Shown here: one piece after another, positions 1,965 to 63,148 of the stretch
How the letters are laid out: every line of letters starts with the position of its first letter
Numbering within the stretch: position 1 is the stretch's first letter
DNA from: an uncultured Chlamydiales bacterium
GTDB taxonomy: Bacteria > Chlamydiota > Chlamydiia > Chlamydiales > FEN-1388
Assembly (NCBI GenBank): GCA_963785335.1
Contig: CAWAUW010000002.1
Location: forward strand, 6,820 to 70,819
DNA: 64,000 bases
Reading direction: 5' to 3'
The notes under the pieces: generated by a model
Seen by the model: only the letters and a program-made list of their open reading frames with translations
Told to the model about the DNA's origin: nothing
The model's database searches: none
Position numbers and translations under genes: made by a program

Positions 1965-2502
1965 AGCCTATCTCGGGCGTTTTTTCAACACAGCCAATAG
2001 TAATCTCCCTAAGAGCTGCATATTGATTTTCTGTAAGAAGATTAGCTTCTTTTAAGCGCTCAAGAGACTGAAGTTTGCTTTGAAGTGTATGTTCATTCAG
2101 CCTCTCAGACTCATCAATTGCTTCACCAGCAGAAAGAGGTCGTAAAGTAACAACGAGATTATCTGGTTTTAAATCCCAGGCACATCCTGAGGCATTATCA
2201 ATTACCGTGCCTAAAATTCCAAATCCAATTATATTGCCGGCTTCTGCGCCGCTTAAAACATGCGTAACTTTAACTTTTTCGGTTTTATAGCCTTCTTTGG
2301 TGATTGTAAGCTCATAGTCGTGATTTCTATTTAATACCAAAGTTGATGGAGTAAGCTGAGCAATATTTTCACTAGAAACAGCAACTGCTGCTCCTGGCGG
2401 GTCGGTTGTGACGGGCACTGTATCAGTGGGCCCATTAAAAAGCGTGGCACAGCCTGTACAAAGTAAAGCTAAAAGTGGTAAATACCGTATATTTTGTTTC
2501 AT
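1963..2502 (-). CDS. PEGA-domain lipoprotein with SHOCT-like C-terminus
   Basis: Lipobox LLALLCTGC. PEGA-like segment: TTDPPGAAVAV...TPSTLVL..HDYELTITKEGYKTEKVKV. The C-terminal LERLKEANLLTENQYAALRE resembles a SHOCT motif. Confidence 0.7.
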   Translation of the reverse strand: MKQNIRYLPLLALLCTGCATLFNGPTDTVPVTTDPPGAAVAVSSENIAQLTPSTLVLNRNHDYELTITKEGYKTEKVKVTHVLSGAEAGNIIGFGILGTVIDNASGCAWDLKPDNLVVTLRPLSAGEAIDESERLNEHTLQSKLQSLERLKEANLLTENQYAALREITIGCVEKTPEIG

Positions 2503-2566
2503 ATCCGATCTATACCAATTAAAAAATTAAATATAAATAACTTTTTGATAATACTGTATTATTATT

Positions 2567-2753
2567 GACCGCAGGTCCCTGGAGTGCGGGTGCAGGTATG
2601 CACCGCTCTTAGATTTGTCACAAACCTTAGCCTGAATATTACCAAAGCAAAAAACAGTCTTTACCGTACGCTTGAAGGATTTTTACGTGCAGTTGTGTGA
2701 TAAATCTAAGAGCGGTGCATAACTGCACCCGCACTCCAGAGAGACCTTCTGTC
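2567..2753. repeat. Palindromic MITE/REP-like element, family A copy 1
   Basis: It has ~50-nt terminal inverted repeats, GACCGCAGGTCCCTGGAGTGCGGGTGCAGGTATGCACCGCTCTTAGATTT and its complement. Related copies are at 18742 and 50351. The right end abuts the stop codon at 2754. Confidence 0.9.
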
Positions 2754-4508
2754 TCAAAGCGAGGCGCGCATGAGGAGACCTGCAAGGGTATAACGATTAT
2801 GCACATTGCCATTACGTATTACCTTCAGCAGCGCTTCGATGCCCTTTTCGTCTTGTCTTTGAGCAAGTGCTTCAAAAGACTCAATTAATAGTGCGCAAGA
2901 CTCTTCAAGACTAAGTTGATAACGCAACGCTTGCACATCCTCGTCTTGCCTCATTTTCCAGGGTAGCACAGGCCGGGCTCTAAATACTTCTTTATCTTCG
3001 TGCTTTTCTACGATTCTTAAAATCGTTTCGGCATAAGGACCTGGCTGTTGCAGGCGATAAAGTCCCAAACAGCACCAAGCACGAATAAGGGGAGCGCCGA
3101 GTCGCTGCTCTTGGCTTTTAAGAAGCCCAATAGCCTTTTCAGAGCGCAAATTTTCAAGAAGCCGCACTGTGAGTGGGACTAAATCATATTGATTATTTAA
3201 AAAAATTGCTTCGGCAAGATCTATAAAATCATCTTCGGCAAGCTCTAGGGCGGCTATGAGCAGCTGTTCTCGAAGGCGCAGAGATATTTCAAAAAACTGA
3301 GGCTGTTTTTCTAACACTTGTAGAGAACTTGCCGTTACTTTCCAGCATGTAAGTGACCCGCCATGTGATGTAATAGGCTGAAATGTGTAATCGGCATGCG
3401 AGTCAATTAATATATCAGCAATACCATGCATACAGCGGCTATCTCTTCGTTGCAGTAAGGAAATAGCTGCATTTGTGCGCACATGTACATCGGGATGCTC
3501 TAAAAGCTCAACTAAAACAAGATCATCTCCATCTAAACTACCAAGTGCATTTATTGCAAAGCAATCACCCATCTTAGCAGCTTCTACGATGCAGCTTTTG
3601 GCAGTTAGCGACCCTAAAGCATGTAAAGCTTTAAGGGCAGCAAGTCTAACAGACGCGTTATGTGACAAGGCAAGTTTTTGCAAAAGCTCACGTGAGGTTT
3701 CATCACCAAAACACCCCAGTGCAAAAGCACAGGCCTCTTGCTGAACTGTGGAAGGCTCCTTAGCGAGAATACGGATGTCTTCGATATATTCATCTCGTCC
3801 AAAGCTTGCCATAGCAAGTATTGCCTCACGTCTTACTGCTTCATTTTGATCATAGGCTTGGCGTTTTAGCTCAAGTAGTGAGCTATGAGAGCCTTCCATC
3901 GCAAAAAGCCTGCAAAAAAGCTCGTGCATTTCAGGCTCTAGCTTTGACATAAGAGAGACAAGCTGCCCATAGGCATCACGGGAGCGCTTTTGTGCAAGCC
4001 AATATGCAGCTTCAAGGCGCACAATTAAGTAATCTGATCTCATAGCACGCTCTAATATTTCAGCGGCAACTTCTGTATCAAAAGAAGCTAGCACTGATAC
4101 AGCAACCAGCTGCAGCTGGGGCTCACCGTAACGAAGAGCGTTTTCAGCAATCACAAGCGATCGATCATCTTGGGAAATTCCTACACCATACAAACACGTT
4201 AAAAGATCTTGTGGATCACGACTTTTAGATCCTTGCTCAAGCAGGGCAAGGCCAAGTTTTTCTAGAGTGCCTTCATGAAATACATAAGCATCTTGGCTTT
4301 TTAAAGCTAAAAGAGCATCGATTGCCTCTTGGATTTTTCCTGATTGAATCATGTACAAAAGATGTGAAACTTTATTTTGACTAAAAGATGCCTCGTTTGT
4401 CTTTACAGTAGCTGGCAGTTCATGCTCTTTTTGGATCTGTCCTTCATCTACTGTATGATTAACACAAGAAGCGGCCATTAAAACAGAAAGCAGCATGATT
4501 TTTTTCAT
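2754..4508 (-). CDS. HEAT/PBS-lyase-like repeat lipoprotein
   Basis: Signal peptide and lipobox LMAASC. Recurrent HEAT-like units: VRLEAAYWLAQ, VRREAILAMASFG, VRLAALKALHALG, VRTNAAISLLQ. Confidence 0.7.
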   Translation of the reverse strand: MKKIMLLSVLMAASCVNHTVDEGQIQKEHELPATVKTNEASFSQNKVSHLLYMIQSGKIQEAIDALLALKSQDAYVFHEGTLEKLGLALLEQGSKSRDPQDLLTCLYGVGISQDDRSLVIAENALRYGEPQLQLVAVSVLASFDTEVAAEILERAMRSDYLIVRLEAAYWLAQKRSRDAYGQLVSLMSKLEPEMHELFCRLFAMEGSHSSLLELKRQAYDQNEAVRREAILAMASFGRDEYIEDIRILAKEPSTVQQEACAFALGCFGDETSRELLQKLALSHNASVRLAALKALHALGSLTAKSCIVEAAKMGDCFAINALGSLDGDDLVLVELLEHPDVHVRTNAAISLLQRRDSRCMHGIADILIDSHADYTFQPITSHGGSLTCWKVTASSLQVLEKQPQFFEISLRLREQLLIAALELAEDDFIDLAEAIFLNNQYDLVPLTVRLLENLRSEKAIGLLKSQEQRLGAPLIRAWCCLGLYRLQQPGPYAETILRIVEKHEDKEVFRARPVLPWKMRQDEDVQALRYQLSLEESCALLIESFEALAQRQDEKGIEALLKVIRNGNVHNRYTLAGLLMRASL

Positions 4509-4510
4509 AG

Positions 4511-5104
4511 CTACCCTAATTCTTTAATATAGTCCCAGAGATCTATTCCAACCTCTTTAAGGACTAATCGCAAAGCATTTATAGGCAGTCCCATAACATT
4601 GTAGTAGCATCCTTCAATTCGCCTCACAAGTATAGAGCCGCTTTTTTGTATGGCGTAGCTGCCTGCTTTATCATACAAAGCATGTACTCGCATGTAACGA
4701 TGAAGCTCATCGGGGGTCAGTGTATTACATAATACTTTAGTTTCTTCTTCTTCGCAGTAAAACTTCCCATCTTTATAGCATGCTAAAGCCGTAATTACTG
4801 AATGCCACCTTCCACACAGGCGACTGAGCATCTCTCTTGATTCATTTTCGTTTAAAGGCTTTCCAAGAGATAAACCATCTATAGCAACTACAGTATCGGC
4901 TGTTAGAATAATGTCATTGGGAAAGTCTTGTGCCAACGATTTTGCTTTTGCCAGTGCTAGATCGCGCGCAAGGCTTGCTGCATCGCCTTTATAGGCAATA
5001 CTATCTTCATCAAAATTTGATGCCACCTGGCGAAAAGGCAACGAAAAAAAATTCATGATTTCAACACGGCGCGGTGAGTGGGACCCTAAAATAATTTCTT
5101 TCAT
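4511..5104 (-). CDS. maf: Maf-family nucleoside triphosphate pyrophosphatase
   Basis: MKEIILGSHSPRR...TADTVV...KAGSYAIQ motifs. The start at 5104 overlaps the ubiE stop; the ORF-track start at 5167 lies inside ubiE. Confidence 0.9.
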   Translation of the reverse strand: MKEIILGSHSPRRVEIMNFFSLPFRQVASNFDEDSIAYKGDAASLARDLALAKAKSLAQDFPNDIILTADTVVAIDGLSLGKPLNENESREMLSRLCGRWHSVITALACYKDGKFYCEEEETKVLCNTLTPDELHRYMRVHALYDKAGSYAIQKSGSILVRRIEGCYYNVMGLPINALRLVLKEVGIDLWDYIKELG

Positions 5105-7838: not shown

Positions 7839-8924
7839 ATGACAATATGCTTCATAAATGCTCAAATTTTTCAGCCTGAAGGGTTTATTAGCGGTGAGCT
7901 CTACGTAAAAAATGGCAAAATCATTGCTCCTGAGGCGGCCGATAAGGTGTATGATTGCCAAAACATGTTCCTTTGTCCCGGTCTTATTGACCTTCAGGTA
8001 AATGGCATTGCCGGACATGATTTTACAACGAGTCTTGATTCATTAAGTGATAGCTGCTCGCTGCTTTCTGGCTACGGTGTAACTAGCTTTTTGGCGACTA
8101 TCGTAAGTCAGCCCCTACGGCGCTACAAAGATATTATAAAAAATTTTAAGCCGCAAGAAAACTGCATAGGCCTGCATTTAGAAGGCCCTCATATCAACCC
8201 CAAACGAAGGGGAGCGCATCCATTTAATGCTATTGTCGAAGAGTGCGCGGTAGATTTTTGGCAAGAAATAGCCGATCCTTCCAAAATCAAAATGGTAACA
8301 CTAGCACCCGAGTGCCGCGGCAGTGCAGAGCTTATTGAACTTCTTTCATCCCGAGGCATTCTGGTTGCCTGTGGTCATTCTCAGGCCACATTTGAAGAAA
8401 TAAACAAAGCAAGAATTCACGGCCTAAGCTTTGCTACACATCTATTTAATGCTATGGAACCATTTCACCAAAGATCTCCAGGCATCATAGGGTATGTTTT
8501 AGGTCACAAAAAGCTTTCCTACTCTCTGATTGTAGATGGCGTACATCTTCATCCTGACACAGTAGCCATGGCCTATAATGCCCATCCTGAGGGCCTTGTG
8601 CTTGTAAGTGATTCAAGTGCAAGAACGCTTGCCGGCCACACTTTAAGCTCGCAAGAAGGCAAAAAAACCCTTTCCGGCACCGATACGATTGCAGGTTCAA
8701 GCTGCACATTACTTGATGCTGTAAACCTGCTTCACCAGCAAACCACCTGCAGTTTCCATCAAGCAATAGCCTGTGCTACCGCAAAACCCGCCGCGCTTTT
8801 AGGCCTTACAACAAAGGGGCGGCTTTTAGAAGGATTTGATGCAGATATCATAGTCCTTGATGAAACAGGATCTTGCTGTAGAACTTTCCTGAGTGGCGTC
8901 CAAACCTACCCAACTAAAAAATAA
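7839..8924 (+). CDS. nagA: N-acetylglucosamine-6-phosphate deacetylase
   Basis: Amidohydrolase motifs GLIDLQVNG, HLEGPHINPKRRGAH, CGHSQAT, THLFNAM. The ATG at 7839 avoids overlap with the divergent gene. Confidence 0.85.
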   Translation: MTICFINAQIFQPEGFISGELYVKNGKIIAPEAADKVYDCQNMFLCPGLIDLQVNGIAGHDFTTSLDSLSDSCSLLSGYGVTSFLATIVSQPLRRYKDIIKNFKPQENCIGLHLEGPHINPKRRGAHPFNAIVEECAVDFWQEIADPSKIKMVTLAPECRGSAELIELLSSRGILVACGHSQATFEEINKARIHGLSFATHLFNAMEPFHQRSPGIIGYVLGHKKLSYSLIVDGVHLHPDTVAMAYNAHPEGLVLVSDSSARTLAGHTLSSQEGKKTLSGTDTIAGSSCTLLDAVNLLHQQTTCSFHQAIACATAKPAALLGLTTKGRLLEGFDADIIVLDETGSCCRTFLSGVQTYPTKK

Positions 8925-8951
8925 ATGACATCGATTAAGAAGATCCATGTT

Positions 8952-9297
8952 GAGATTTTTTTTTACCGCAGAGAAAACAGCCGAGATCGCAGAGAAACGC
9001 AGAGAGAAAGAGAATACAAAATACTGAATAATACAGCTGTCCGACGCCCAATGGACATTATTCGCGAGAATAATGCCCAAAAGGTCAGGCCGCTAAGCGC
9101 GGCAGAAAGCTTGGCCACGTGGGTTTTACTGAGAGGCGAAGCTTTCTGCCGCGCTTAGCGGCGATGCCCCTCTGGGCATTATTTCTCAAAATAATGTCCA
9201 TTCAGCATCCTAAGCATCCGATTTCGCGAAGCGTCTCTGCATTTCTCTCTCTCTCTCTGCGTCCTCGGCTGTTTTCTCTGCGGTAAAAAAAAATCTC
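8952..9297. repeat. 346-bp nested palindromic element, family C copy 1
   Basis: Outer arms are GAGATTTTTTTTTACCGCAGAGAAAACAGCCGAG and its complement. Inner arms are AATGGACATTATTCGCGAGAATAATGCCC and GCCGCTAAGCGCGGCAGAAAGCTT. The core is shared with the element at 53591-54220. It also has (CT)n/(GA)n tracts. Confidence 0.9.
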
Positions 9298-9397
9298 ACC
9301 ATGTATCGGCATTAGCCATAGCCTTTACTTCCTGGCTTTCTATCTCATTTTGTAGTATTCTATTGCTTTATCTTGTTGCTCTATCCATCGGAGAGAT

Positions 9398-11340: not shown

Positions 11341-12171
11341 TTATGGAATATTTACAGTTGCCTTGCTAATAAGTAATTTTGCTTGAAATAGCATTTTGAT
11401 TGCCTGTCGTATATCTTTTTCTAATGATGGAAGAATTTTATCGGTAAAGTCTTTTACGACTTTCTGATGCTCTGGATTCAAAGTAAAGGGCGCTCTCATA
11501 AAGAGACAAGCAAAAGTAAAAGCATGTTCTTTTTTTAGGTCATCCGAAATTTTAGTCCAGGTTGACATTGGATCTTTTACTACAAGCATCTTTTCTAAAG
11601 CGTCAAATATGCCATCAACTTCTATTACTACTTTTTTGGAAACAGAGTAGGCAGAAAATATAACTTCACGGTTGAGCTGTCCTATCATTAGATAGTTTTC
11701 TTCTAAAATAGTTGTAAAGTACTCCCATGGCTTTTTATATTTTTCAACTACAAGCTCTCCCAAATAGCTGCAAATTCGCCGGGATACATCGATAGATTTT
11801 TGAATTTGATTGTTATTAGGGGATTGTACAAGCACTAAATCTTCTACCTTTTCAAGGATGACTTTTCGCGCCTCATTGGTATTATGTGTTAATCTTTTAA
11901 GGGCAATGACGATAAGCTCAGGCTGATATGTTTGAATAGCGCCTTCGAACGTATTTACAATAAAGCTAACATCTTTGGTCTTTGCACAAGCATGAAAAAG
12001 CTTAGAGTCGTTTTGGTATTCATCATCACCTTTTTTTCGTCTTTTATTAGGCGTCTCTAAAAAAAACTGCAATGCTTCTAATGTGTCTGTGGGCACTTTG
12101 GCGATAAGATCTGTTACCGTGCGGCTGCTCCAATTTTTTGCTACATAGGCTTGTAAGAAATCGGTTTGCAT
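11341..12171 (-). CDS. Hypothetical protein (276 aa), no recognisable motif
   Basis: Long ORF with coding-like composition in a tRNA-adjacent islet. Confidence 0.55.
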   Translation of the reverse strand: MQTDFLQAYVAKNWSSRTVTDLIAKVPTDTLEALQFFLETPNKRRKKGDDEYQNDSKLFHACAKTKDVSFIVNTFEGAIQTYQPELIVIALKRLTHNTNEARKVILEKVEDLVLVQSPNNNQIQKSIDVSRRICSYLGELVVEKYKKPWEYFTTILEENYLMIGQLNREVIFSAYSVSKKVVIEVDGIFDALEKMLVVKDPMSTWTKISDDLKKEHAFTFACLFMRAPFTLNPEHQKVVKDFTDKILPSLEKDIRQAIKMLFQAKLLISKATVNIP

Positions 12172-16587: not shown

Positions 16588-18251
16588 ACTTTGATACAGA
16601 TCAAAAACTGCCAGAGCTTGCCTTAAGTCCACTACAAAAAGAGCGCCTTGAATACTCTCCAATCATACCAGAGGGCCTCCAGAGACTCGAAGAGCTCGAT
16701 TTTCAAGAGAGGGGACTAGTCAGCTGTCAAACAGCTATTGCTCCATCATTTCCACATCTCACTCATCGAAAGCAACTTGCCCTAACTCGCAAAACTCAGC
16801 CCTGCGGACCTCTTAAAGTTGGCGTGGTACTCTCAGGCGGGCAAGCAGCAGGCGGCCATAACGTAATTTCTGGTTTATATGATGCACTAATTGAGTTAAA
16901 CCCTGAAAGTCAGCTTTTTGGTTTTTTAAATGGCCCAGGGGGCATTATACGCAACAAAACCATCGAAATTACAAAAGAACTTCTGGCAAATTACCGCAAT
17001 CAAGGCGGCTTTGATCTTGTAGGATCTGGTAGAACAAAAATAGAAACACCCGAGCAGTTTAAGGCAGCGCTTCATGCAGTAAACGAAAACGAACTTAACG
17101 GCCTTGTGATAGTAGGTGGGGATGATTCAAACACAAATGCAGCCTTTTTGGCTGAATACTTTGCAAGTATGTCATGTAAAACATGCGTAGTAGGCGTTCC
17201 AAAAACCATCGATGGCGATCTGCAAAACGCCGATATTGAAATTTCCTTTGGCTTTGATACGGCGTGCAAAACCTACTCAGAGATCATTGGCAACATTGCG
17301 CGCGATTGTCTTTCAGCTAAAAAATACTACTATTTTATCAAGCTTATGGGCAGATCAGCTTCTCATATTACGCTGGAATGCGCCCTTCAAACCCAGCCAA
17401 ACATTGCCTTGATCGCCGAAGAAATTCAAACTAAACGAATGAAGCTTTCAGATGTTGTAAAGCTCCTTGTTGATGTGGTAAAAGAACGCTCTAAACTTGG
17501 TTGTGATTATGGTGTTGTGTTAGTACCTGAGGGCATTGTAGAGTTTATGCCGGATTTTAGCGCACTTATCCACGAGTTAAATAAACTTTTGGCACATGGC
17601 ACAGAAGAGTCTGTTACCATGGAGCGCACTTTTGAAAATGAAGGGAAAATTTCATATATAACCTCAAGGCTTACTTCCGATGCCCAAATCGTTTATACAA
17701 GCCTGCCTCAAGAAATTCAACTGCAGCTTTTAATTGATCGTGACCCTCACGGTAATGTACAGGTATCAAAAATTGACAGTGAACGTTTGCTGATGCAGCT
17801 AACCCACGAGCAGCTAAAACGCCTTGATCCATCCATAAAATTTTCCTGCCAGCCGGTTTTTTGCGGATATGAGGGAAGATCTGGAATGCCGAGTAACTTT
17901 GATGCTACTTACTGTTATAGTTTAGGACGACTTGCTGCGCTTCTTATTGCCCGGCGACGCTCCGGCTTTATTGCCTCATTTGCAAATCTTGCCAAACACC
18001 CAGATAAATGGGAACCAAAAGTTACACCGCTTGTTTCCATGCTTGCCATTGAAGAGCGGGAGGGAAAGCCCAAAACCGTCATCCAAAAAGCCCTTGTAGA
18101 CCTCAAAGGCAAAGCCTTTAGCGCATTTAACTCTAAACGTATGTCGTGGCGTCTCAAAGACCAATACTGCCAGCCAGGACCGATTCAATTTTTCGGCCCT
18201 CGCGAAGTCACAGACACTGTACCCATTTGCCTACAACTCAAATCCAATTAA
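16584..18251 (+). CDS. pfp: Diphosphate-dependent (PPi) 6-phosphofructokinase
   Basis: LSGGQAAGGHNV, GGDDSNTNAA, PKTIDGDL and MGRSASH motifs, with the ~555-aa length typical of long PPi-PFKs. Confidence 0.9.
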   Translation: MNFDTDQKLPELALSPLQKERLEYSPIIPEGLQRLEELDFQERGLVSCQTAIAPSFPHLTHRKQLALTRKTQPCGPLKVGVVLSGGQAAGGHNVISGLYDALIELNPESQLFGFLNGPGGIIRNKTIEITKELLANYRNQGGFDLVGSGRTKIETPEQFKAALHAVNENELNGLVIVGGDDSNTNAAFLAEYFASMSCKTCVVGVPKTIDGDLQNADIEISFGFDTACKTYSEIIGNIARDCLSAKKYYYFIKLMGRSASHITLECALQTQPNIALIAEEIQTKRMKLSDVVKLLVDVVKERSKLGCDYGVVLVPEGIVEFMPDFSALIHELNKLLAHGTEESVTMERTFENEGKISYITSRLTSDAQIVYTSLPQEIQLQLLIDRDPHGNVQVSKIDSERLLMQLTHEQLKRLDPSIKFSCQPVFCGYEGRSGMPSNFDATYCYSLGRLAALLIARRRSGFIASFANLAKHPDKWEPKVTPLVSMLAIEEREGKPKTVIQKALVDLKGKAFSAFNSKRMSWRLKDQYCQPGPIQFFGPREVTDTVPICLQLKSN

Positions 18252-18391
18252 TACATTTACCTAAATGTGAGCTCGCCCTAGAATTAGTATATGAAAAATC
18301 TCGTAGCTTCATTTTATTCTGTTCTTCTTCCCCGCTAGGGGTAAACTACCGTTTTGTCAATCAATTTTTAATTTTAACAGATAAGGTAGAT

Positions 18392-18733
18392 ATGGAATCA
18401 GGAAAAATAGAGTTTGCAGATTTTTTGAAAGTTGATATTCGAGCAGGTACAATCATTGCTGTGTATGACTTTCCAGAAGCACGAAAAGCATCATTCAAAA
18501 TCGATATTGATTTTGGCGAATTAGGAATTAAAAAGTCATCCGCCCAAATTACCCATCACTATAAAAAAGATGAGTTGGTAGGAAAACAGGTAATTGCCGT
18601 AGTCAATTTTCCTCCAAAACAAATAGGAAAGTTTTTTTCAGAAGTTCTTACCCTAGGGCTACCTGATGAAAAGGAATATGTGGTTTTACTTGAACCTACC
18701 GTCAAAGTTCCCAATGGAAGCCGACTTTTTTAA
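18392..18733 (+). CDS. csaA: CsaA-like tRNA-binding (OB-fold) protein
   Basis: FLKVDIRAGTII...ELVGKQVIAVVNFPPKQIG matches the tRNA_bind/EMAP fold. The ATG at 18392 is the sensible start; the ORF-track upstream extension looks non-coding. Confidence 0.85.
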   Translation: MESGKIEFADFLKVDIRAGTIIAVYDFPEARKASFKIDIDFGELGIKKSSAQITHHYKKDELVGKQVIAVVNFPPKQIGKFFSEVLTLGLPDEKEYVVLLEPTVKVPNGSRLF

Positions 18734-18741
18734 GTGTTTTT

Positions 18742-18917
18742 GACCGAAGGTCTCTGGGAGTGCGGGGCAGTTATGCACCGCTCTTAGATTTATCTCTAGA
18801 GATCAACTTCAGTATTTCCAAAGCTAAAATAGCATTCACAGCGCGCTTGAAGGATTTTTACGTGTAATTGTGAGATAAATCTAAGAGCGGTGCATAACTG
18901 CACCCGCACTCCAGAGA
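18742..18917. repeat. Palindromic element, family A copy 2 (right tip truncated)
   Basis: It has the same TIR and the same interior (CGCTTGAAGGATTTTTACGTG) as 2567-2753. It starts 9 nt after the csaA stop. Confidence 0.9.
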
Positions 18918-18957
18918 GCTATGCTCATGCTGCATTTCACAGCCTCTACATGGCTTT

Positions 18958-19911
18958 TTAAACATCATACAAATGACATGCAACATGATGGCCTGGACGC
19001 ACTTCTTTTAGCCTAGGCGAGATGTGGCGACAGGCTTCTGTTGCATGAGGACAGCGAGTATGAAAAACGCAGCCTGATGGCGGATCGACAATGGATGGAG
19101 GATCACCTACAATGCACAATTTGGCGGGGATGTTTTCAGCTTCTGGATCGGGTATTGGAATACTTGCCATCAGAGCCTGTGTATATGGATGAAGCGGCTC
19201 TTTGAAAATATCTTCTGCCGGAGCTACTTCCATAACCCGGCCAAGATATAAAACAATTAATCGATGAGCAAGATAGCGCAGTGTAGCCAAATCGTGGGTA
19301 ATAAACAGATATGAAATCCCTTGTTCTTGCTGAATTTTTTTTAGCAGCAATATAATTTGAGCCACTACTGAAATATCAAGTGATGACAAAGGCTCATCGC
19401 AAATTAAAAGCTTTGGCTTTACACTAAGTGCTCGGGCAATGCTTACACGCTGCTTTTGTCCGCCGCTTAGCTGATAAGAGTACATTTTAGCAGTACTATG
19501 GGGCAGTTGCACCATATCCAAAAGCTCTATAATATAATCACTAACAGATCCGGCATGCTCAACCTTAGATGTGATAATGGCTTCTTTAAGATGCCCTTCG
19601 ACTGTCATACGCGGATTGAGAGATGCATCTGGATCTTGAAAGATCATCTGCATACCGCGTAGAGCACGCCTTAACTCTCTTGATGAGAGATTTGTTAGCT
19701 CTTTTCCTTCAAAAAAGACGCGTCCATGTGTTGGGCGATTTATGCACATCAACGTTTTTGCAAGCGTAGACTTGCCGCAGCCGCTTTCTCCTACTACGCC
19801 AAGTGTTTGCCCTAAAAAGCCCTCTAAATCTACATCGCGTAGCGCCATAAAGCGGGCATTTTTGAGTTGGTATTCAACATCAATTTGTTTTACTTCAAAA
19901 AGCGGGCTCAT
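18958..19911 (-). CDS. oppF: Oligopeptide ABC transporter ATP-binding protein OppF
   Basis: Walker A GESGCGKST, signature LSGGQKQR, Walker B LLICDEP, and the oligopeptide C-terminal domain HPYTQALM...GCVFHTRCP. Confidence 0.9.
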   Translation of the reverse strand: MSPLFEVKQIDVEYQLKNARFMALRDVDLEGFLGQTLGVVGESGCGKSTLAKTLMCINRPTHGRVFFEGKELTNLSSRELRRALRGMQMIFQDPDASLNPRMTVEGHLKEAIITSKVEHAGSVSDYIIELLDMVQLPHSTAKMYSYQLSGGQKQRVSIARALSVKPKLLICDEPLSSLDISVVAQIILLLKKIQQEQGISYLFITHDLATLRYLAHRLIVLYLGRVMEVAPAEDIFKEPLHPYTQALMASIPIPDPEAENIPAKLCIVGDPPSIVDPPSGCVFHTRCPHATEACRHISPRLKEVRPGHHVACHLYDV

Positions 19912-32086: not shown

Positions 32087-34336
32087 TTATGAAGAAAATT
32101 TATTTTCAACAGGAATTGGAAGTTCAAGGAGGGCTAAATGTTTTTTTGTCCAAGGGATAAGCTTGGTATAGAGGTATTTAGTAAACTCGACTGAATTTTT
32201 TATGCTGCGCTTTACAGCATCAATATATTCTTGGTCATTATAAACGATTACTGAAGGCTGTTTTCCAAGATTAAGGATTGTGTTCATGAAAATTCTTGCT
32301 AACCTTCCACTGCCCTCATCAAATGCAAAAATCCGAATAATTTGCGTGTGTGTCCAGCCTGCAAGGTCCACATAATCGATTGTGTCTTGACTCAAGCGAC
32401 TTTGTAGATCTTGGGCAAAAGTGGTCATTAACGGTTCTATCTCTTTTGGGCCAGGGGGAATGTAGCCGACTGTGTCCCAAATGGCTTTTTCTTGTTCAGT
32501 AAGGTTGCCAAGATTGTTTACATCTCTTTGGACGAGCGTGACTAGGTGTATGAATTTTATGAAGTCTGCACGGGAAAGATTGTCCCTTGCTTTTTCAATC
32601 ATTTTCTCAGGATTACCTGTACCATCAAGAATCATCCAGCCTGTGCGATATTTTCCTAAAGAGGGTGGATCCTCATGCGTTACACGTTGCATGAGTATAT
32701 AGTGAACCATTTTTATTAGCTGCAGCGTCTGTTCAGCATTCTGTTTTAGGATCTCTGGGTTAGATAAAATTGCCTGTTCAATGAAATGTAGGGCATTTTG
32801 GTAGTTGAGATACTTGTGTTCAGATAGATCAAAATGCATTTTTTTCTTTTGCCCATTGATGACAAAAGTAAAGGGAAGGCCTTTTTCAAAAGAAGCTTCT
32901 TCAGATGCATGAAGCGCAAGAACATGGCCCATCGATTTTTTTTGCCCAGAAAGCTCTTGTAGGCATGTTTCAGTGGATGCAGCAGTAGCTTGAATGTCGC
33001 ATCCATCGCGGCCAAGGTTTACAAGCTGTATGCCGGGGTTCATGTACCTGGCTTCGTTTATTATTCTGCGACGTATAGGATCATCAAGATGAGGCAGATT
33101 CTTTTTTGTCCAGGCAAGCTGATTGCGCAAATAGTCTGTAAAAACTTTTCGATCTTTTGTGCCTTCCTGAACTTTTTGTAAATAGACAGTTTTGTTGTTG
33201 AAGACAACAGGAGATTCTTCTGCATAAACAAGAATGGTGTTTAAAATAAGCCTTGAAAGCTTTCCTACACTTATTTGAAAGGGAGAAATTTGGGTAAGCT
33301 CGGCGTGAGCAAAGCTTGCGTGGTCAATAAAATCTCCACCCATTTGCATGCGAGCCTTAAGAGCTTCAGCAAAGCTCATCATTGCCGAGTCAATATTGTG
33401 AGGCATTGTGGCGACAAAAAATACCTTGTTAAGTAAAGCAATATCTTCTTTTGTAAATGAAGATGCATTTTTTTGTGAAAGCTCGCCATACATCTTGACG
33501 AACTTTATATATTCATCTTTTAATGGGAGAGTTTGTTGTACATGGGCGCCAAGTAATTTTCCATGTACTTTATGGGTAAGGATTTTAGTGCTATTTCGGT
33601 ACTTTCCTGGAGAATTACGTTTTTCATAAAAAAGATCATCTGTAAGAATGCGGTGCAGTTTTTGGATTGTCTGCAGCGTGTTGTTGGCTCCTTGTTGAAA
33701 CAACTGCATGTCGTTTACTAACGTAGCCTCAGCATATTTTAGAGCCTTTTCGTAATTTTCGAATTTCCTGGCAGGGATAAGAAATGTAAAAGGAATGGCC
33801 ATACCATCTTGTCGTATGCCAAGGCGTACCACACCTTCTTCATGAGTTGTATTAATGTCAGACTCAGTAAAACGCTCATTATGAGGAGATTTATGCAGGT
33901 AGTGTTCGTACAAAGAGCCGCTCGCAAATTCGCATCGTTCTCGTGAATCAACGCCGGATGCCATATCACAGGCGGTTGTGCCGAGTCTTGCTAGCTGCTT
34001 GCCGGGATTCATATAGCGAGCACTATTAACGAAATAACTTTGAGAAGCTACGTTTGGAACATGCGCCGGAGGAGCTGGAGCCTCGCATTGGCAATCAGCT
34101 GTAGTACTTGATGATATGCAACTTGCCCCTGCAGCTAATGCTGGGGCTATGGGAAGAAGCATCAAGCTTAGACCAATGGCTAAGCCAAAGACAAGTCCTA
34201 CCTTTGCCACTTCTACAGCAGTAGAGGCAAATTTTTTGAATGATCTGCCGAGCCAGCTACTTTCGGTTTGGGAATCTTCTTTTGTTTGGGATAACAGGGT
34301 TGCTTGTTTTTTTGTAATAGAGTAAGTAAAAGTCAT
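32087..34336 (-). CDS. Membrane-anchored protein with two tandem Fic-like domains, both lacking the catalytic His
   Basis: TM segment VGLVFGLAIGLSLMLLPIAPAL. It has two ~320-aa internal repeats, each starting (N)xARYMNPGxQL. Fic-motif positions read ISPFQISVGK (33260-33289) and IFAFDEGSGRLAR (32303-32332). A TTG at 34351 is an alternative start. Confidence 0.7.
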   Translation of the reverse strand: MTFTYSITKKQATLLSQTKEDSQTESSWLGRSFKKFASTAVEVAKVGLVFGLAIGLSLMLLPIAPALAAGASCISSSTTADCQCEAPAPPAHVPNVASQSYFVNSARYMNPGKQLARLGTTACDMASGVDSRERCEFASGSLYEHYLHKSPHNERFTESDINTTHEEGVVRLGIRQDGMAIPFTFLIPARKFENYEKALKYAEATLVNDMQLFQQGANNTLQTIQKLHRILTDDLFYEKRNSPGKYRNSTKILTHKVHGKLLGAHVQQTLPLKDEYIKFVKMYGELSQKNASSFTKEDIALLNKVFFVATMPHNIDSAMMSFAEALKARMQMGGDFIDHASFAHAELTQISPFQISVGKLSRLILNTILVYAEESPVVFNNKTVYLQKVQEGTKDRKVFTDYLRNQLAWTKKNLPHLDDPIRRRIINEARYMNPGIQLVNLGRDGCDIQATAASTETCLQELSGQKKSMGHVLALHASEEASFEKGLPFTFVINGQKKKMHFDLSEHKYLNYQNALHFIEQAILSNPEILKQNAEQTLQLIKMVHYILMQRVTHEDPPSLGKYRTGWMILDGTGNPEKMIEKARDNLSRADFIKFIHLVTLVQRDVNNLGNLTEQEKAIWDTVGYIPPGPKEIEPLMTTFAQDLQSRLSQDTIDYVDLAGWTHTQIIRIFAFDEGSGRLARIFMNTILNLGKQPSVIVYNDQEYIDAVKRSIKNSVEFTKYLYTKLIPWTKKHLALLELPIPVENKFSS

Positions 34337-34446
34337 CAATTTAGTACGCAAAATAAAAAGATAATTTAGATAATAGCATGATATTTGTCAATATAACGAG
34401 GATTTTTAGATTGTTCCTTTTATGAAACAGCTTCCCTACATCTTGT

Positions 34447-35988: not shown

Positions 35989-36088
35989 GTGAAAGACCGT
36001 AATTTTAAGCAATGATAGCAGATAATTTCATCACAACACAAGGGGCTGATGCATAATTCACAACTAAAATTTTTTAAGACCCCTTTTT

Positions 36089-36279
36089 GACCGCAGGTCT
36101 TTGGAGTGCTGCGATTCTTCGCAGCTCTTAATTTTGCAGTAGACTTCAACCTCAATAACGCCCCAAGCAAATAATAGCCCCTAGAAATACCGTGAAGGTT
36201 GCATTGGGCGTTATTGAAGTTGAGGTGTGTGCAAAATTAAGAGCTGCGAAGAATCGCAGCACTCCAAAGACCTGCGGTC
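36089..36279. repeat. 191-bp near-perfect palindromic element, family B
   Basis: The arms are GACCGCAGGTCTTTGGAGTGCTGCGATTCTTCGCAGCTCTTAATTTTGCA... and their complement. The terminal ~21 nt are shared with family A. Confidence 0.9.
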
Positions 36280-36315
36280 AAAAAAAAGTCCAATGCAATA
36301 GGGGTCCTACCGACT

Positions 36316-59901: not shown

Positions 59902-60341
59902 GCATTTGTTTTAGAGCCCATCAGGGCGACTGATTAAAGCCCACTGGAGATAATTGCAGAAGTCTTTTCATCGTTGCTAGAGCGATTCCTTTTCTATGCA
60001 GATAACTTTTTTTATCATTTCACGATTCTACGAGACTTGTTTTAGAGCCCGTTTTGGGCGATTTATTATAGCCCATAGTGACCTAAAGGGAACTATGGGT
60101 ATACAAAAAACCATCCTGGAGCCCGTTCAGGGGCGATTCAATCTTACTCTTTTGCCTTATTAACATTTGTGTACGATTTGAATCACCCTAAAAGGGTTCC
60201 AGAAATGGGTGTGCGATTCCCACACTTCCTTACGGTCAGTGTGGGCTCTAAAACAAAATACAACCTTTCATTAGAAAAATATTTTATTGACACTTATGCA
60301 ATTATCTCACTGTGACCATAAGAGAACTGTGGGGGGGGGGG
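59902..60341. repeat. Irregular cluster of short direct and inverted repeats ending in a G11 tract
   Basis: GTTTTAGAGCCC occurs at ~59909 and ~60039 and inverted at ~60243. The palindrome CTGGAGCCCGTTCAGGGGCGATTCAATC / GATTTGAATCACCCTAAAAGGGTTCCAG is at 60116-60201. There are 28-nt hairpin units such as CCCATAGTGACCTAAAGGGAACTATGGG. G11 is at 60331-60341. Confidence 0.8.
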
Positions 60342-60345
60342 CAGG

Positions 60346-60668
60346 CCTAGGGTGTTGATTTGAGGGCGTTTTTGCGACATGAATATCATGCAATATTTGT
60401 CCTTGAATGAGGCGCTTGGCGCATGTTTTTTGAGCGAAGCTCTTTGGAGTGACTCGATTCATCGAGTCTTTTCTTAGGCCGATTCATCGGCCGCGCCGAC
60501 ATGAGCTTTATGCTTATCAATCTGGCCGCAAAAGTTTCAAGCAGTGCGGCCGATGAATCGGCCTAAGAAAAGACTCGATGAATCGAGTCACTCCAAAAAA
60601 ACTTCTGCCAAGGACAACTATTGAAAGAAAATCATTTTGTAAAAAAGCACTTAAATCAACACCCTAGG
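60346..60668. repeat. Palindromic element, family G copy 1 (TIR CCTAGGGTGTTGATTT), carrying a nested element
   Basis: The left tip CCTAGGGTGTTGATTTGAG pairs with the right tip CTTAAATCAACACCCTAGG. The family G tip recurs at 63149-63521. Confidence 0.85.
60436..60605. repeat. 170-bp near-perfect palindrome, family H, nested in family G copy 1
   Basis: The arms are GAAGCTCTTTGGAGTGACTCGATTCATCGAGTCTTTTCTTAGGCCGATTCATCGGCCGC and their complement. Each arm contains two mini-hairpins: GACTCGATtcATCGAGTC and GGCCGATtcATCGGCC. Confidence 0.9.
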
Positions 60669-60786
60669 GCAGGCCTCAATCTAGAGCCCTTCAGGGACGA
60701 TTCAAATCTCACATCGGTCTTTCCATTTTCTTGAAACTATACTTATAAATAGGTAAAATAATGAAATTATAATAAAGGAAAACATT

Positions 60787-62253
60787 TTGGTTTCATTATC
60801 GGGTATATCTGGTTTAAACAGTTATCCATCTATAGTTTTGCAGAATGAATTTAATGAGCTATATAATAAACTTCAGGATATTTTATATGAAAAAGCAGAT
60901 GCTACCTCTTTTCTGAATTCTCTTACACTTAAACAACTACGCCTTATATCAACTGAAGGGAAAACTAAGGGTGCCAGCATACTGTGGTGTATTGCCAACC
61001 ACGCTCTACAAAAATTTTCTCCTTTACTTTCCTCTGTATGGGAAAAATTTGGCCAAGAACTCACAATCCAGGATTTGCGCTGCTGCATAGAAGCAGGTAA
61101 TTATGAAGGCACCTCAGTGTTCTGGAATATTGCCTTTACCTTTAGTCCATTACATAGTCCAGGTATCTTTCTGGCTGTATGGGAAAAGTTTATCAATGAA
61201 ATAACTCTCGACGATTTGCGTGTGAAGTGTAAAGCTGGGAGCTTCGCTGGTTCTTCAATGCTGCAAGTCGTATTCTATTGCTCTGTCCATGCAAGTCAAT
61301 TTTTTACTATAGTAAATCAAGTGCTAAACAAAAGAATTACACTTGATGACTTGCTGAATGAAAAAACCACCACTCTACCTTCGGCACTTGCGAGCTTTAC
61401 TACCAAAGAGCTTTTTACTGTGATATATAAGAAATTTGGCAATGAACTTTTAAGTCATTTGCAGGCAGTTTTTAAAGATACTACTATCTTATACACGAGG
61501 ATGCACGAGGCGGCGACACAAGGAAGGAATCGAGAATTTGTTGAAGAAATACTTGCCCAAATGCCCTACGCCTACAATGCAGAAGATTGCTTATTTACAT
61601 CCGAGAAGGCCGCGTGGAGCAAAAAAAATATCAATACAATGCTTTCAGAAAATACAGATTGGGGCGCTAAAATAGCAGCACTGATAGCGGCAAGAAATGC
61701 ATTTTTTGATGAACTCACAAAAATACAAGCCATAGAAGAGCCGGACCCCCATGTTTTTAGTAATATAAAGCAACTTGCCCATGCAGCGACAATTGCAGGC
61801 TACCACAATGCCTACTATGATCTTGGAGGGCTGCTTAAAAAGTACGCACCATTTCAGGAAGAGGCCTGCAAGGCTCTTGCAAATCTTCCAAAAGAGTCAT
61901 TCTACTATGATCAGATAATAATAGAGCTACAGCAAATGTATTTTGCCTTGGCGATTGAAACAGGCAGTAGAAAAAAAATTTACTTGAAAAAAGCCACTAA
62001 AGTCGCCCTAAAACTACCCCCAACACTTCGAGTATCCGCAATTCAAGAAATTGCTTTTCTCTATATGAATGGAACTATGAAGACACATGGAGTGGACCGC
62101 AACATCCTTCCAAAACACATCCTTGAAGTCTTAGATGAAAAAAGAACTCCAGATTGGTGCTTTGAAGTATTCGATGATCTTATAGAAACCTTAGGGTTGA
62201 AAGCAGAACTTGCCACCATCAAAAAGAGAACCCGGCACTTACCAAACTCATAA
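60787..62253 (+). CDS. Hypothetical protein with four ~46-aa N-terminal repeats and a helical-repeat (Sel1/TPR-like) C-terminal half
   Basis: TTG start with an AAGGA SD. The repeats follow the pattern hT(L/I)xDLR...G.S.hW.IA...VWEKFGxE. Its last 110 codons are duplicated downstream. Confidence 0.7.
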   Translation: MVSLSGISGLNSYPSIVLQNEFNELYNKLQDILYEKADATSFLNSLTLKQLRLISTEGKTKGASILWCIANHALQKFSPLLSSVWEKFGQELTIQDLRCCIEAGNYEGTSVFWNIAFTFSPLHSPGIFLAVWEKFINEITLDDLRVKCKAGSFAGSSMLQVVFYCSVHASQFFTIVNQVLNKRITLDDLLNEKTTTLPSALASFTTKELFTVIYKKFGNELLSHLQAVFKDTTILYTRMHEAATQGRNREFVEEILAQMPYAYNAEDCLFTSEKAAWSKKNINTMLSENTDWGAKIAALIAARNAFFDELTKIQAIEEPDPHVFSNIKQLAHAATIAGYHNAYYDLGGLLKKYAPFQEEACKALANLPKESFYYDQIIIELQQMYFALAIETGSRKKIYLKKATKVALKLPPTLRVSAIQEIAFLYMNGTMKTHGVDRNILPKHILEVLDEKRTPDWCFEVFDDLIETLGLKAELATIKKRTRHLPNS

Positions 62254-62685
62254 TAAAAGGGCGCCCCTTTGAGTTATGCCTAATGCAGGCCCGGCCCTTT
62301 TCAATAGAGCTACAGCAAATGTATTTTGCCTTGGCGATTGAAACAGGCAGTAGAAAAAAAATTTACTTGAAAAAAGCCACTAAAGTCGCCCTAAAACTAC
62401 CCCCAACACTTCGAGTATCCGCAATTCAAGAAATTGCTTTTCTCTATATGAATGGAACTATGAAGACACATGGAGTGGACCGCAACATCCTTCCAAAACA
62501 CATCCTTGAAGTCTTAGATGAAAAAAGAACTCCAGATTGGTGCTTTGAAGTATTCGATGATCTTATAGAAACCTTAGGGTTGAAAGCAGAACTTGCCACC
62601 ATCAAAAAGAGAACCCGGCACTTACCAAACTCATAATAAAAGGGCGCCCCTTTGAGTTATGCCTAATGCAGGCCCGGCCCTTTTC
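61920..62685 (+). repeat. Exact tandem duplication, 2 x 383 bp
   Basis: 61920-62302 and 62303-62685 read identically by eye, and the ORF-track translations are identical over 110 aa. The unit covers the 3' end of the gene, its stop, the GGGCGCCC hairpin and the GCAGGCCCGGCCCTTTTCAAT motif. Confidence 0.95.
62283..62636 (+). pseudogene. Duplicated 3' gene fragment with a fortuitous ATG (117 codons)
   Basis: After MQARPFS the sequence is identical to the last 110 aa of 60787-62253. No convincing SD. Confidence 0.6.
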
Positions 62686-63107: not shown

Positions 63108-63148
63108 TCCAAAAGTTTATGAACACGAGTGAAAAGGGCCTTGAAAAG

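Follow-up and report, generated by a model that had tools for sequence, protein, structure and literature searches.

Dispersed palindromic elements with covarying hairpin arms in a clade of uncultured chlamydiae

Enzymes of the HUH class are known to have folded single-stranded DNA hairpins as substrates. REPs, or repetitive extragenic palindromes, are defined as short imperfect palindromes with a conserved GTAG or CGTC tetranucleotide at one end (PMC3733652), and the terminal inverted repeats (TIRs) of TIRYT tyrosine transposases by their position beside a TIRYT gene, their motif being GGGGWSAS (Di Nocera et al. 2013, PMC3733652). Hyperstable mini-hairpin DNA of the form GCGNAGC is known at phage G4, RSF1010 ssiA and phage N4 sites (PMC13037366). 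Environmental chlamydiae have been studied mainly for their gene content, and in the literature searched we found no account of their intergenic repeats, of chlamydial repeats resembling REPs or MITEs (miniature inverted-repeat transposable elements), or of the motifs reported here. A 64-kb stretch of DNA from an uncultured chlamydia-like bacterium, analysed at its full length and referred to below as the window, contains five intergenic palindromic elements of 160-200 bp each, without genes, that belong to sub-families A (A1, A2, A3), B and H. A preliminary description of the window had likened them to the REP/bacterial interspersed mosaic element (BIME) type. Membership of that type was not supported: the conserved linear tag is TGGAGT, neither GTAG nor CGTC is present, the elements are far longer than REPs and no RAYT or Y1 enzyme was seen in the ~360 kb covered by our weak screens. 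Two small hairpins that stay intact while their stem letters change mark the family as one of REP/MITE-like, presumably selfish elements, read by shape, that appears not to have been described before.

Arm plan and covariation of the hairpin stems

All five elements were found at, or a few bases off, the positions given in the preliminary description (Table 1). All arms follow one order from the outside inwards. TT usually stands outermost; the tip hairpin of 11 nt comes next and is separated by two to four pyrimidines from TGGAGT, after which a second hairpin (hairpin 2) and TCTTA follow. Hairpin 2 starts with G and closes with C and has a stem of 7-8 bp and a loop of 4 nt. Its sequence is GCGGTGCA-gtta-TGCACCGC for sub-family A, GCTGCGA-ttct-TCGCAGC for B and GACTCGA-ttca-TCGAGTC for H, the tip hairpin being GACC-GCA/GAA-GGTC in A and B and GAGC-GAA-GCTC in H. 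A motif that combines these parts (tip, 2-4 nt, TGGAGTG, 15-24 nt, TCTTA) matched the window five times and was absent from 100 dinucleotide-preserving shuffles of it, and TGGAGTG alone occurs 14 times on both strands of the window, eight of these within elements. The arm architecture of A, B and H is homologous, as the preliminary description had proposed from their shared module order, and its further claim that the hairpin letters differ while pairing is kept was borne out by the alignments below. Some of its details had to be revised. The A stem, given as GGTGCA/TGCACC, was too short; the actual stem, GCGGTGCA/TGCACCGC, is imperfect in most cases, through a single bulged base or through a G.A mismatch. 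The hairpin reported for H exists and is better written as above; CTCTTA does not directly follow the stem in H, which reads C-TTT-TCTTAGG with the motif moved by 3 nt. The tip described as common to A and B is indeed common to them, and H also has one, GAGCGAAGCTC; relative to GACCGCAGGTC, C..G is replaced in it by G..C, a compensatory change, so that the tip covaries as well.

Complementarity between the two arms of an element is 55/55 in B, 52/52 in H (60443-60494 / 60546-60597), 90% in A1, 80% in A2 and 76% in A3. As single-stranded DNA, element B is predicted to fold into a hairpin of ~95 bp (-92.5 kcal/mol, z = -22), and single arms into both local hairpins (z = -2.4 to -4.1).

A profile and then a covariance model of the arms were built and scanned, which recovered 49 arms in the 244 kb of the window and related loci. 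Nine of these matches lie in the window, one for each arm of the five elements except the left arm of A3, which is truncated. What is kept in the arms is structure and not stem sequence, because pairing and two-sided changes lie far above the shuffled and slid controls. Eleven arms were aligned with MAFFT free of gaps, and 100% of the hairpin-2 cells in this alignment were paired, with two-sided change in 6 of its 7 pairs and one-sided change in none, and pairing fell to 31-54% when the partners were slid by 1-3 columns. In the model-based alignment of 49 arms, 97.2% of stem cells paired (77.7 +/- 1.2% in shuffles; 34-61% with partners slid), double changes were tabulated in 92 cells (32 +/- 3.5 in shuffles) and 9 of 11 pairs changed on both sides. 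RNAalifold independently predicted the same two hairpins and added a 3-pair extension, in which GAG of TGGAGT pairs with CTT/CTC of the tail across a T.T mismatch. The linear flanks are constant beside the variable stems, TGGAGT being exact in 44 of 49 arms. The contrast that the preliminary description had drawn with MITEs, which keep their TIRs as sequence, was therefore half right: shape is kept, but the elements also have long, partly sequence-conserved TIRs.

About 13 distinct hairpin-2 stems occur in the 49 arms, or 20 stem strings when bulge and mismatch variants are counted separately. The main stems are GCGGTGCA, GCG[G/C/T]GTGCA (one base recurrently bulged), GCGGGGCA (containing a G.A mismatch), GC[T/C]GGTGAA, GCGGTAA, GCG[C]GTAA, GCGGCAA, GTGGAAA, GCTGCGA, GCTGTGA, GCGGCGC, GACTCGA and GACTCAC, together with GCGGTGC-tagtt-GCACCGC. 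Some stems form compensatory series, that is, they differ from one another by one or two steps, as between GCGGTAA/TTACCGC and GCGGCAA/TTGCCGC, GCTGCGA/TCGCAGC and GCTGTGA/TCACAGC, GACTCGA/TCGAGTC and GACTCAC/GTGAGTC (the latter in an H-type copy at related locus L027), and GTGCA and GTGAA. The large jumps between the stems of A, B and H could result from module replacement and not from stepwise change; hairpin-2 size, position and G...C closure are kept even across these three.

It is the local hairpins, and not the pairing between arms, that are kept, given that the two arms of one element can bear different hairpins. At locus L006 the left arm carries GCGGTAA and the right arm GCTGCGA, each internally perfect, and at L003, L008 and L010 the tips differ between the two arms of one element; in A1-A3, arm-to-arm complementarity drops to the 76-90% given above while local stems stay 97% paired. 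The tip offers an unbiased test, because the search pattern allowed all four S..S combinations: the tips of every true element carry a pairing combination, and mismatched ones occurred only in two chance matches (L013 and L023). The tip loops are GAA in 31, GCA in 7 and GTA in 3 arms (41 of 48 being GNA), with a closing C-G pair in 44 of 46, and the tips contain the 5'-C(GNA)G-3' core of mini-hairpin DNA within GCGNAGC or CCGNAGG, since GAGCGAAGCTC includes d(GCGAAGC) and GACCGAAGGTC includes CCGAAGG. The loops of hairpin 2 are T-rich tetraloops that matched no stable RNA tetraloop class on either strand. The GNA tip loops, their C-G closure and the hairpin-2 loop type would favour DNA over RNA as the folded molecule. 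Non-Watson-Crick cells on the arm-sense strand comprised six G.T and no A.C, which hints that the folding strand is the one running 5' to 3' into the element, an asymmetry that fits single-stranded DNA and an incoming transcript alike.

Table 1 Coordinates of the palindromic elements and their modules in the window.
Feature	Position	Strand	Description
Element B	36084-36284	.	Complete palindrome; arms 36084-36138 / 36230-36284 complementary 55/55; centre 36136-36232 partly palindromic
B left tip hairpin GACC-GCA-GGTC (C-GNA-G mini-hairpin)	36089-36099	+	Mirror copy 36269-36279, minus strand
B linear motif TGGAGT	36102-36107	+	Mirror ACTCCA at 36261-36266
B hairpin 2 GCTGCGA-ttct-TCGCAGC	36108-36125	+	Mirror copy 36243-36260, minus strand
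B tail TCTTAATTTT (conserved TCTTA motif)	36126-36135	+	Mirror 36233-36242
Element A1	2567-2753	.	Left arm: tip 2567-2577, TGGAGT 2580-2585, hairpin 2 2586-2606 with bulged G
A1 right arm			Hairpin 2 2712-2732; tip 2743-2753, broken by C>A change
Element A2	18742-18926	.	Left arm: tip 18742-18752, TGGGAGT, hairpin 2 18762-18781 (G.A-mismatch variant)
A2 right arm			Hairpin 2 18887-18907; decayed tip GAGCTATGCTC at 18916-18926
Element A3	50351-50511	.	Left arm truncated: TGGAGT 50352-50357 and half of hairpin 2
A3 right arm			Intact; perfect hairpin 2 GCGGTGCA/TGCACCGC 50473-50492; tip 50501-50511
Element H	60432-60613	.	Left arm: tip GAGCGAAGCTC 60432-60442, TGGAGT 60445-60450, hairpin 2 60451-60468
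H left arm, inner part			Tail TTTTCTTAGG; third hairpin GGCCGATTCATCGGCC at 60477-60492
H right arm			Hairpin 2 60572-60589; tip decayed
Extra decayed arm, putative relative of the intact arms judging by its sequence	49861-50059	+	GAGCAAAGCTT-TT ... TT-TGGAAT-GCGGAGTTAAGCAC; split by unrelated palindromic element 49874-50037
Further palindromic elements	8919-9330, 49874-50037, 50091-50325, 53663-54138, 60037-60251, 60339-60675, 63148-63522, 63523-63657, 41124-41428

Dispersal, decay and genomic position

A motif scan of species-representative genomes yielded 10 related loci in four metagenome-assembled genomes (MAGs), whose records read 'Chlamydiales bacterium' or 'uncultured bacterium', and a scan of metagenome contigs yielded 15, of which 12 were real; the other three (L013, L017 and L023) were rejected as chance matches. 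Outside the window there are thus 22 real related loci. One MAG (CAZEGK01) carries at least four element types, compared with A, B and H in the window, and the H-type copy in another genome (L027, 1188-1336) occupies a non-orthologous site. Copies in different genomes adjoin unrelated housekeeping genes, and copies at different loci are mostly 80-90% identical in their outer arms and 50-70% in their centres. Solo arms, tandem arrays and nested copies all occur, and modules are shuffled among families. Several contigs start or end in or next to elements (L005, L007, L011, L015 and L028), suggesting that the repeats break short-read assemblies and that the true copy number lies above the assembled count.

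The density of elements is uneven, with five in the 64-kb window and none in ~55 kb of the partly syntenic loci L026, L029 and L030. The gene content of the window is typically chlamydial (Ank, UCH and Fic proteins, the futalosine pathway and a PPi-dependent phosphofructokinase, PFK), and the nearest named relatives of this PFK, at ~57% identity, are from Parachlamydiaceae. In five syntenic loci reached through PFK homologues, gene order downstream of PFK differs and no empty counterpart of A2 or B was found. Element B had no blastn match among plasmids and A1 none among phages, and the combined motif had none in viral contigs. Rfam 15 gave no gathering-score match on the elements and only two tRNAs elsewhere in the window, and permissive Rfam scans of B and A1 returned only sub-threshold matches to plant miRNA precursors, which are generic long hairpins.

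None of the 23 paired-arm elements whose flanks were read by eye is bounded by a target-site duplication. Of 48 arms, 31 have TT just before the tip and 38 have T there; the TT appears to belong to the inverted repeat, as it is mirrored by AA on the opposite side; a 13-bp direct repeat at L007, considered as a candidate target duplication, proved to be a tandem array of the element.

The fate of a resident copy could be followed at L012, an orthologue of window 2273-4628 (88% nucleotide identity) with a copy of A1 at the same site. The two copies differ by gain or loss of a stem bulge, by a T deletion that creates the G.A variant and by the tip-breaking C>A change, and another locus (L002) also carries a decayed hairpin. 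The A1/L012 changes indicate that resident copies decay and are not efficiently repaired, and this decay suggests in turn that the covariation seen across the family arises from selection among proliferating copies and not from automatic correction. The element is nonetheless 89% identical between the two copies, compared with 72% for third codon positions in the gene beside it, and this conservation above the synonymous level leaves room for some host-level constraint or conversion between copies.

Fifteen elements have two called neighbouring genes, and all 15 face at least one gene 3' end: the genes are convergent in six cases, co-directional in nine and divergent in none, and in eight of the nine co-directional gaps the element lies nearer the upstream stop codon. 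From stop codon to arm start the distance is 1-37 nt in A1, A2 (both sides), A3 and B. A2 is flanked by the convergent 3' ends of genes 18146-18733 (+) and 18958-19911 (-), and the right end of A1 abuts the stop codon of gene 2754-4508 (minus strand). That stop codon (2754-2756) directly follows the tip hairpin (2743-2753), and at L022 (600-605 and 846-852) a neighbouring gene's stop codon likewise abuts or overlaps the tip; the element may have supplied or replaced the 3' end of the neighbouring gene. B and the H-type copy of L027 come right behind a strong native terminator, which consists of a long stem and T8 (window 36285-36335, minus strand; L027, 1153-1192), with the element tip 0-2 nt after the T tract, and there could be an insertion preference for such tracts. 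Hairpin 2 and its tail themselves score as terminator-like and inward-facing in both arms of B and H (G+C-rich stem of at least 5 pairs, loop of 3-8 nt, T-rich tract), and do not in A1; the tails are poorer than the native ones. Promoter function was also considered and rejected, as TTGACC-N17-GGTAAT occurs in one sub-family only and is not kept in A, B or H, and a scanner gave no promoter in the arms.

Proposed mode of propagation and rival explanations

We tentatively favour a reading in which the elements form a non-autonomous, dispersed palindromic repeat family, REPIN/BIME/MITE-like, of a clade of uncultured chlamydiae, with an arm module that would most likely be read on single-stranded DNA by a trans-acting protein. 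Each arm would act as a recognition module in which the hairpins count by shape and their neighbours TGGAGT and TCTTA by sequence, and proliferation would be limited to copies with intact hairpins, which would account both for stems that differ among sub-families yet always pair and for the decay of resident copies. The combination of a hairpin beside invariant motifs, bulged imperfect stems, DNA-type mini-hairpins and no target duplication points to a protein that acts on folded single-stranded DNA, whose gene would lie in another part of the genome. The best guess for this reader would be a nuclease of the HUH type or a Y1 transposase, because the substrates of these enzymes consist of a hairpin and an adjacent single-stranded motif and their action leaves no target duplication. 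A bolder version, which we regard as doubtful, would be a REPIN-like replicator system in Chlamydiae, in which one enzyme reads hairpin geometry and the TGGAGT/TCTTA flanks on single-stranded DNA, tolerates many stem variants and propagates them together, with the C-GNA-G mini-hairpin as a nucleation or protection module. Its partner, of Y1/HUH type or new, would lie outside the known RAYT range, and the double-hairpin arm, no less doubtfully, would be a substrate different from those of REP, IS200/IS605 and attC. The family constitutes a natural experiment, in which invariant motifs flank about 13 stems and the arms of one element are sometimes unlike, so that what is read as shape can be separated from what is read as sequence; if a partner enzyme is found, hairpin-guided single-stranded DNA transposition would extend to a new phylum, with a compact biochemical substrate at hand.

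Several observations weigh against the single-stranded DNA reading. Pfam scans of 37 open reading frames (ORFs) of the window (those of at least 120 aa, minus overlapped or synteny-identified ones) detected no transposase or HUH domain, in agreement with the preliminary description, which had noted no transposase there, and 20 ORFs adjoining elements in other loci gave the same result. A crude regular-expression search for HUH and YxxNP motifs over 230 kb returned nothing, all-against-all clustering of 645 ORFs revealed no ORF family recurring beside elements, and no autonomous copy, with arms flanking a gene, occurs in the roughly 360 kb inspected. No pair of filled and empty sites was found that would demonstrate mobility, the exact ends and the target site. 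The ends of IS200/IS605 are not inverted repeats and those of our elements are; copies within one genome are old (74-90% identical), with no sign of current activity; and the asymmetry between G.T and A.C rests on about five independent events.

Much of the positional evidence would also suit a portable two-way transcription terminator or 3'-end stabiliser, an explanation that we consider unlikely. An arm in sense orientation would be met from either side, the tip hairpin and hairpin 2 would form in the transcript, which would end, or be shielded against 3' exonucleases, at the U-rich tail (UCUUAAUUUU or UUUUCUU), and stem covariation would reflect selection on an RNA hairpin. The terminator-like, inward-facing hairpin 2 and tail in both arms of B and H agree with it, as do the gene 3' ends faced by all 15 elements, with no divergent pair and a bias towards the upstream stop codon, the short distances between stop codons and arms, the tolerance of G.T and not A.C on the strand of an incoming transcript, and the A1/L012 conservation in excess of third codon positions. 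Yet B and the L027 copy sit right after a strong native terminator, where a second would be redundant, the element tails are poorer than the native T8 tracts and A1 is not terminator-like. The tail, moreover, is kept as the sequence TCTTA, even when shifted by 3 nt, and not as a mere U-rich stretch, and the pairing of GAG of TGGAGT with CTT/CTC of the tail predicted by RNAalifold would sequester the U-tract. Termination would account neither for the invariance of TGGAGT nor for the GNA loops of the tips, a loop type that stands out in DNA and not in RNA.

The elements might instead be ordinary MITEs, whose double-stranded terminal 20-50 bp would be bound by a DDE transposase, with compensatory changes of mutational origin (template switching in quasi-palindromes, or conversion between arms); we hold this to be improbable. 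It would be in keeping with the long TIRs, with modules shuffled between families and with the outermost 20 nt GAGCGAAGCTCTTTGGAGT, which also bound a quite different interior (L022, 600-852), as MITE families share terminal repeats; the arms of B and H are perfectly complementary though copies differ by 10-40%, which suggests conversion within the element. A DDE transposase is harder to reconcile with the absence of target-site duplications at all 23 elements, and neither the roughly 360 kb nor the plasmid, phage and viral-contig searches yielded a parent insertion sequence. Correction between arms would not leave decayed hairpins unrepaired in resident copies, local hairpins 97% paired while the arms of A1-A3 diverge, or, as at L006, unlike but internally perfect hairpins on the two arms; constant flanks beside variable stems are the reverse of neutral drift with correction. 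Least convincing to us, and very improbable, is a DNA structure used by the host, such as a cruciform or hairpin site for a nucleoid protein, gyrase or primase (an initiation signal like RSF1010 ssiA or the phage G4 origin). The tips do match the mini-hairpin sequences of single-stranded DNA priming sites (PMC13037366), and REP/BIME elements are known to bind gyrase and IHF (PMC3733652), but the uneven density of the elements and the decay of many copies speak against such a role, for which no candidate protein is known.

Neighbouring features and comparison with described systems

At least eight further families of long, often nested palindromes, with arms of 40-113 nt, occur in the window (Table 1), for example 53663-53741 / 54060-54138 with arms at 99%. 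Summed roughly, these palindromes and the TGGAGT family take up about 5% of the window's length. Some of them recur elsewhere or touch elements of the TGGAGT type. The hairpin GGACATTATTC-GCGA-GAATAATGCCC (9052-9078) is also found outside the tip of a TGGAGT-type element at L018. Copies of the 60037-60251 family exist in L002 and L024 too. In the decayed arm, element 49874-50037 (ends GAGGCTGTGAAAAAAT) is an insertion that separates the tip from TGGAAT, and the TT to either side of it resembles a target duplication of 2 bp produced by this other family. The same end, GAGGCTGTGAAAAAT, adjoins the tip directly in L016/L024, on one arm of the TGGAGT-type element there, as a shorter GAAAAAT does in L021; on the other arm GAAAAAT lies 6-7 nt outside the tip. 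H is nested within another palindrome (60339-60405 / 60609-60675), and a run of about 13 G (60330-60342) lies just outside this enclosing palindrome. A palindromic element of short GATCTTAAT / CTTATTCTTA-type repeats occupies 63523-63657, and similar sequence lies just downstream of the PFK gene at L027 (about 11740-11760) and L028 (about 8960-9040).

A perfect direct duplication of 300 bp (61920-62219 / 62303-62602, spacing 383 bp) reflects either tandem duplication of recent date or an artefact of the assembly; it takes in the 3' portion of ORF 60787-62253 (488 aa, without a Pfam match) and the next ORF, 62283-62636. The two halves of a Fic-domain protein of 754 aa (32087-34351) are visibly similar, suggesting from sequence an internal duplication, and the Ank, UCH (ubiquitin hydrolase) and PIN genes near it are typical of the effector and toxin content of environmental chlamydiae.

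Among described repeats, the bacterial MITEs (Correia, RUP, Nezha and the Coxiella QMITEs) are similar in being 100-400 bp long, noncoding, intergenic and at times nested, with TIRs. The elements share with MITEs the TIRs and a noncoding length within 50-500 bp and lack the target-site duplication; they differ further in ends that are kept as hairpin shapes and in having no parent insertion sequence that we could find. The ends of IS200/IS605 and the palindrome-associated elements known as PATEs likewise have subterminal, imperfect hairpins, bulged or mismatched, beside short single-stranded motifs, and no duplication, but left and right ends of IS200/IS605 are not inverted copies of each other, whereas the chlamydial ends are mirror images. 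Elements derived from IS200/IS605 insert 3' of a fixed tetra- or pentanucleotide; before the chlamydial tips the frequent sequence is the TT or T counted above, which may be target or element. The tips contain exactly the mini-hairpin DNA sequences d(GCGNAGC)/CCGAAGG, with loops varying only at N and a closing C-G pair; these are described as single functional sites in phage and plasmid origins and in promoters (PMC13037366), and here they form a module of a dispersed chromosomal repeat.

With the REP, BIME and REPIN elements that RAYT (Y1 HUH) transposases mobilise in Proteobacteria, the family shares an extragenic, noncoding location concentrated at the 3' ends of genes, a short, conserved linear tag beside an imperfect hairpin, inverted doublets able to form one long hairpin (five elements in the window and 18 others), and the occurrence of several sub-families per genome, of old persistent copies and of both solo units and clusters. 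Beyond the tag, the differences lie in arms with two hairpins (three in H), extra modules outside the tip in some sub-families, arms of 50-110 nt in place of 20-40 nt and whole elements of 150-400 bp, in a chlamydia-like host. REP genomes have a cognate single-copy RAYT (Y1_Tnp) gene that the repeats typically flank; no RAYT was found here in the window, in the 20 adjoining ORFs or by the 230-kb motif search. The TIR repeats of TIRYT transposases are similar in having longer TIRs, some with self-complementary tracts, in their arrangement as dimers or clusters and in a presumed mobilisation by Y1 enzymes (PMC3733652); no TIRYT gene was seen at the chlamydial elements, and the sequence motifs are unrelated. 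By analogy, then, the chlamydial family appears most like the REP/REPIN elements and the TIR repeats of tyrosine transposases, which would be its closest working parallels.

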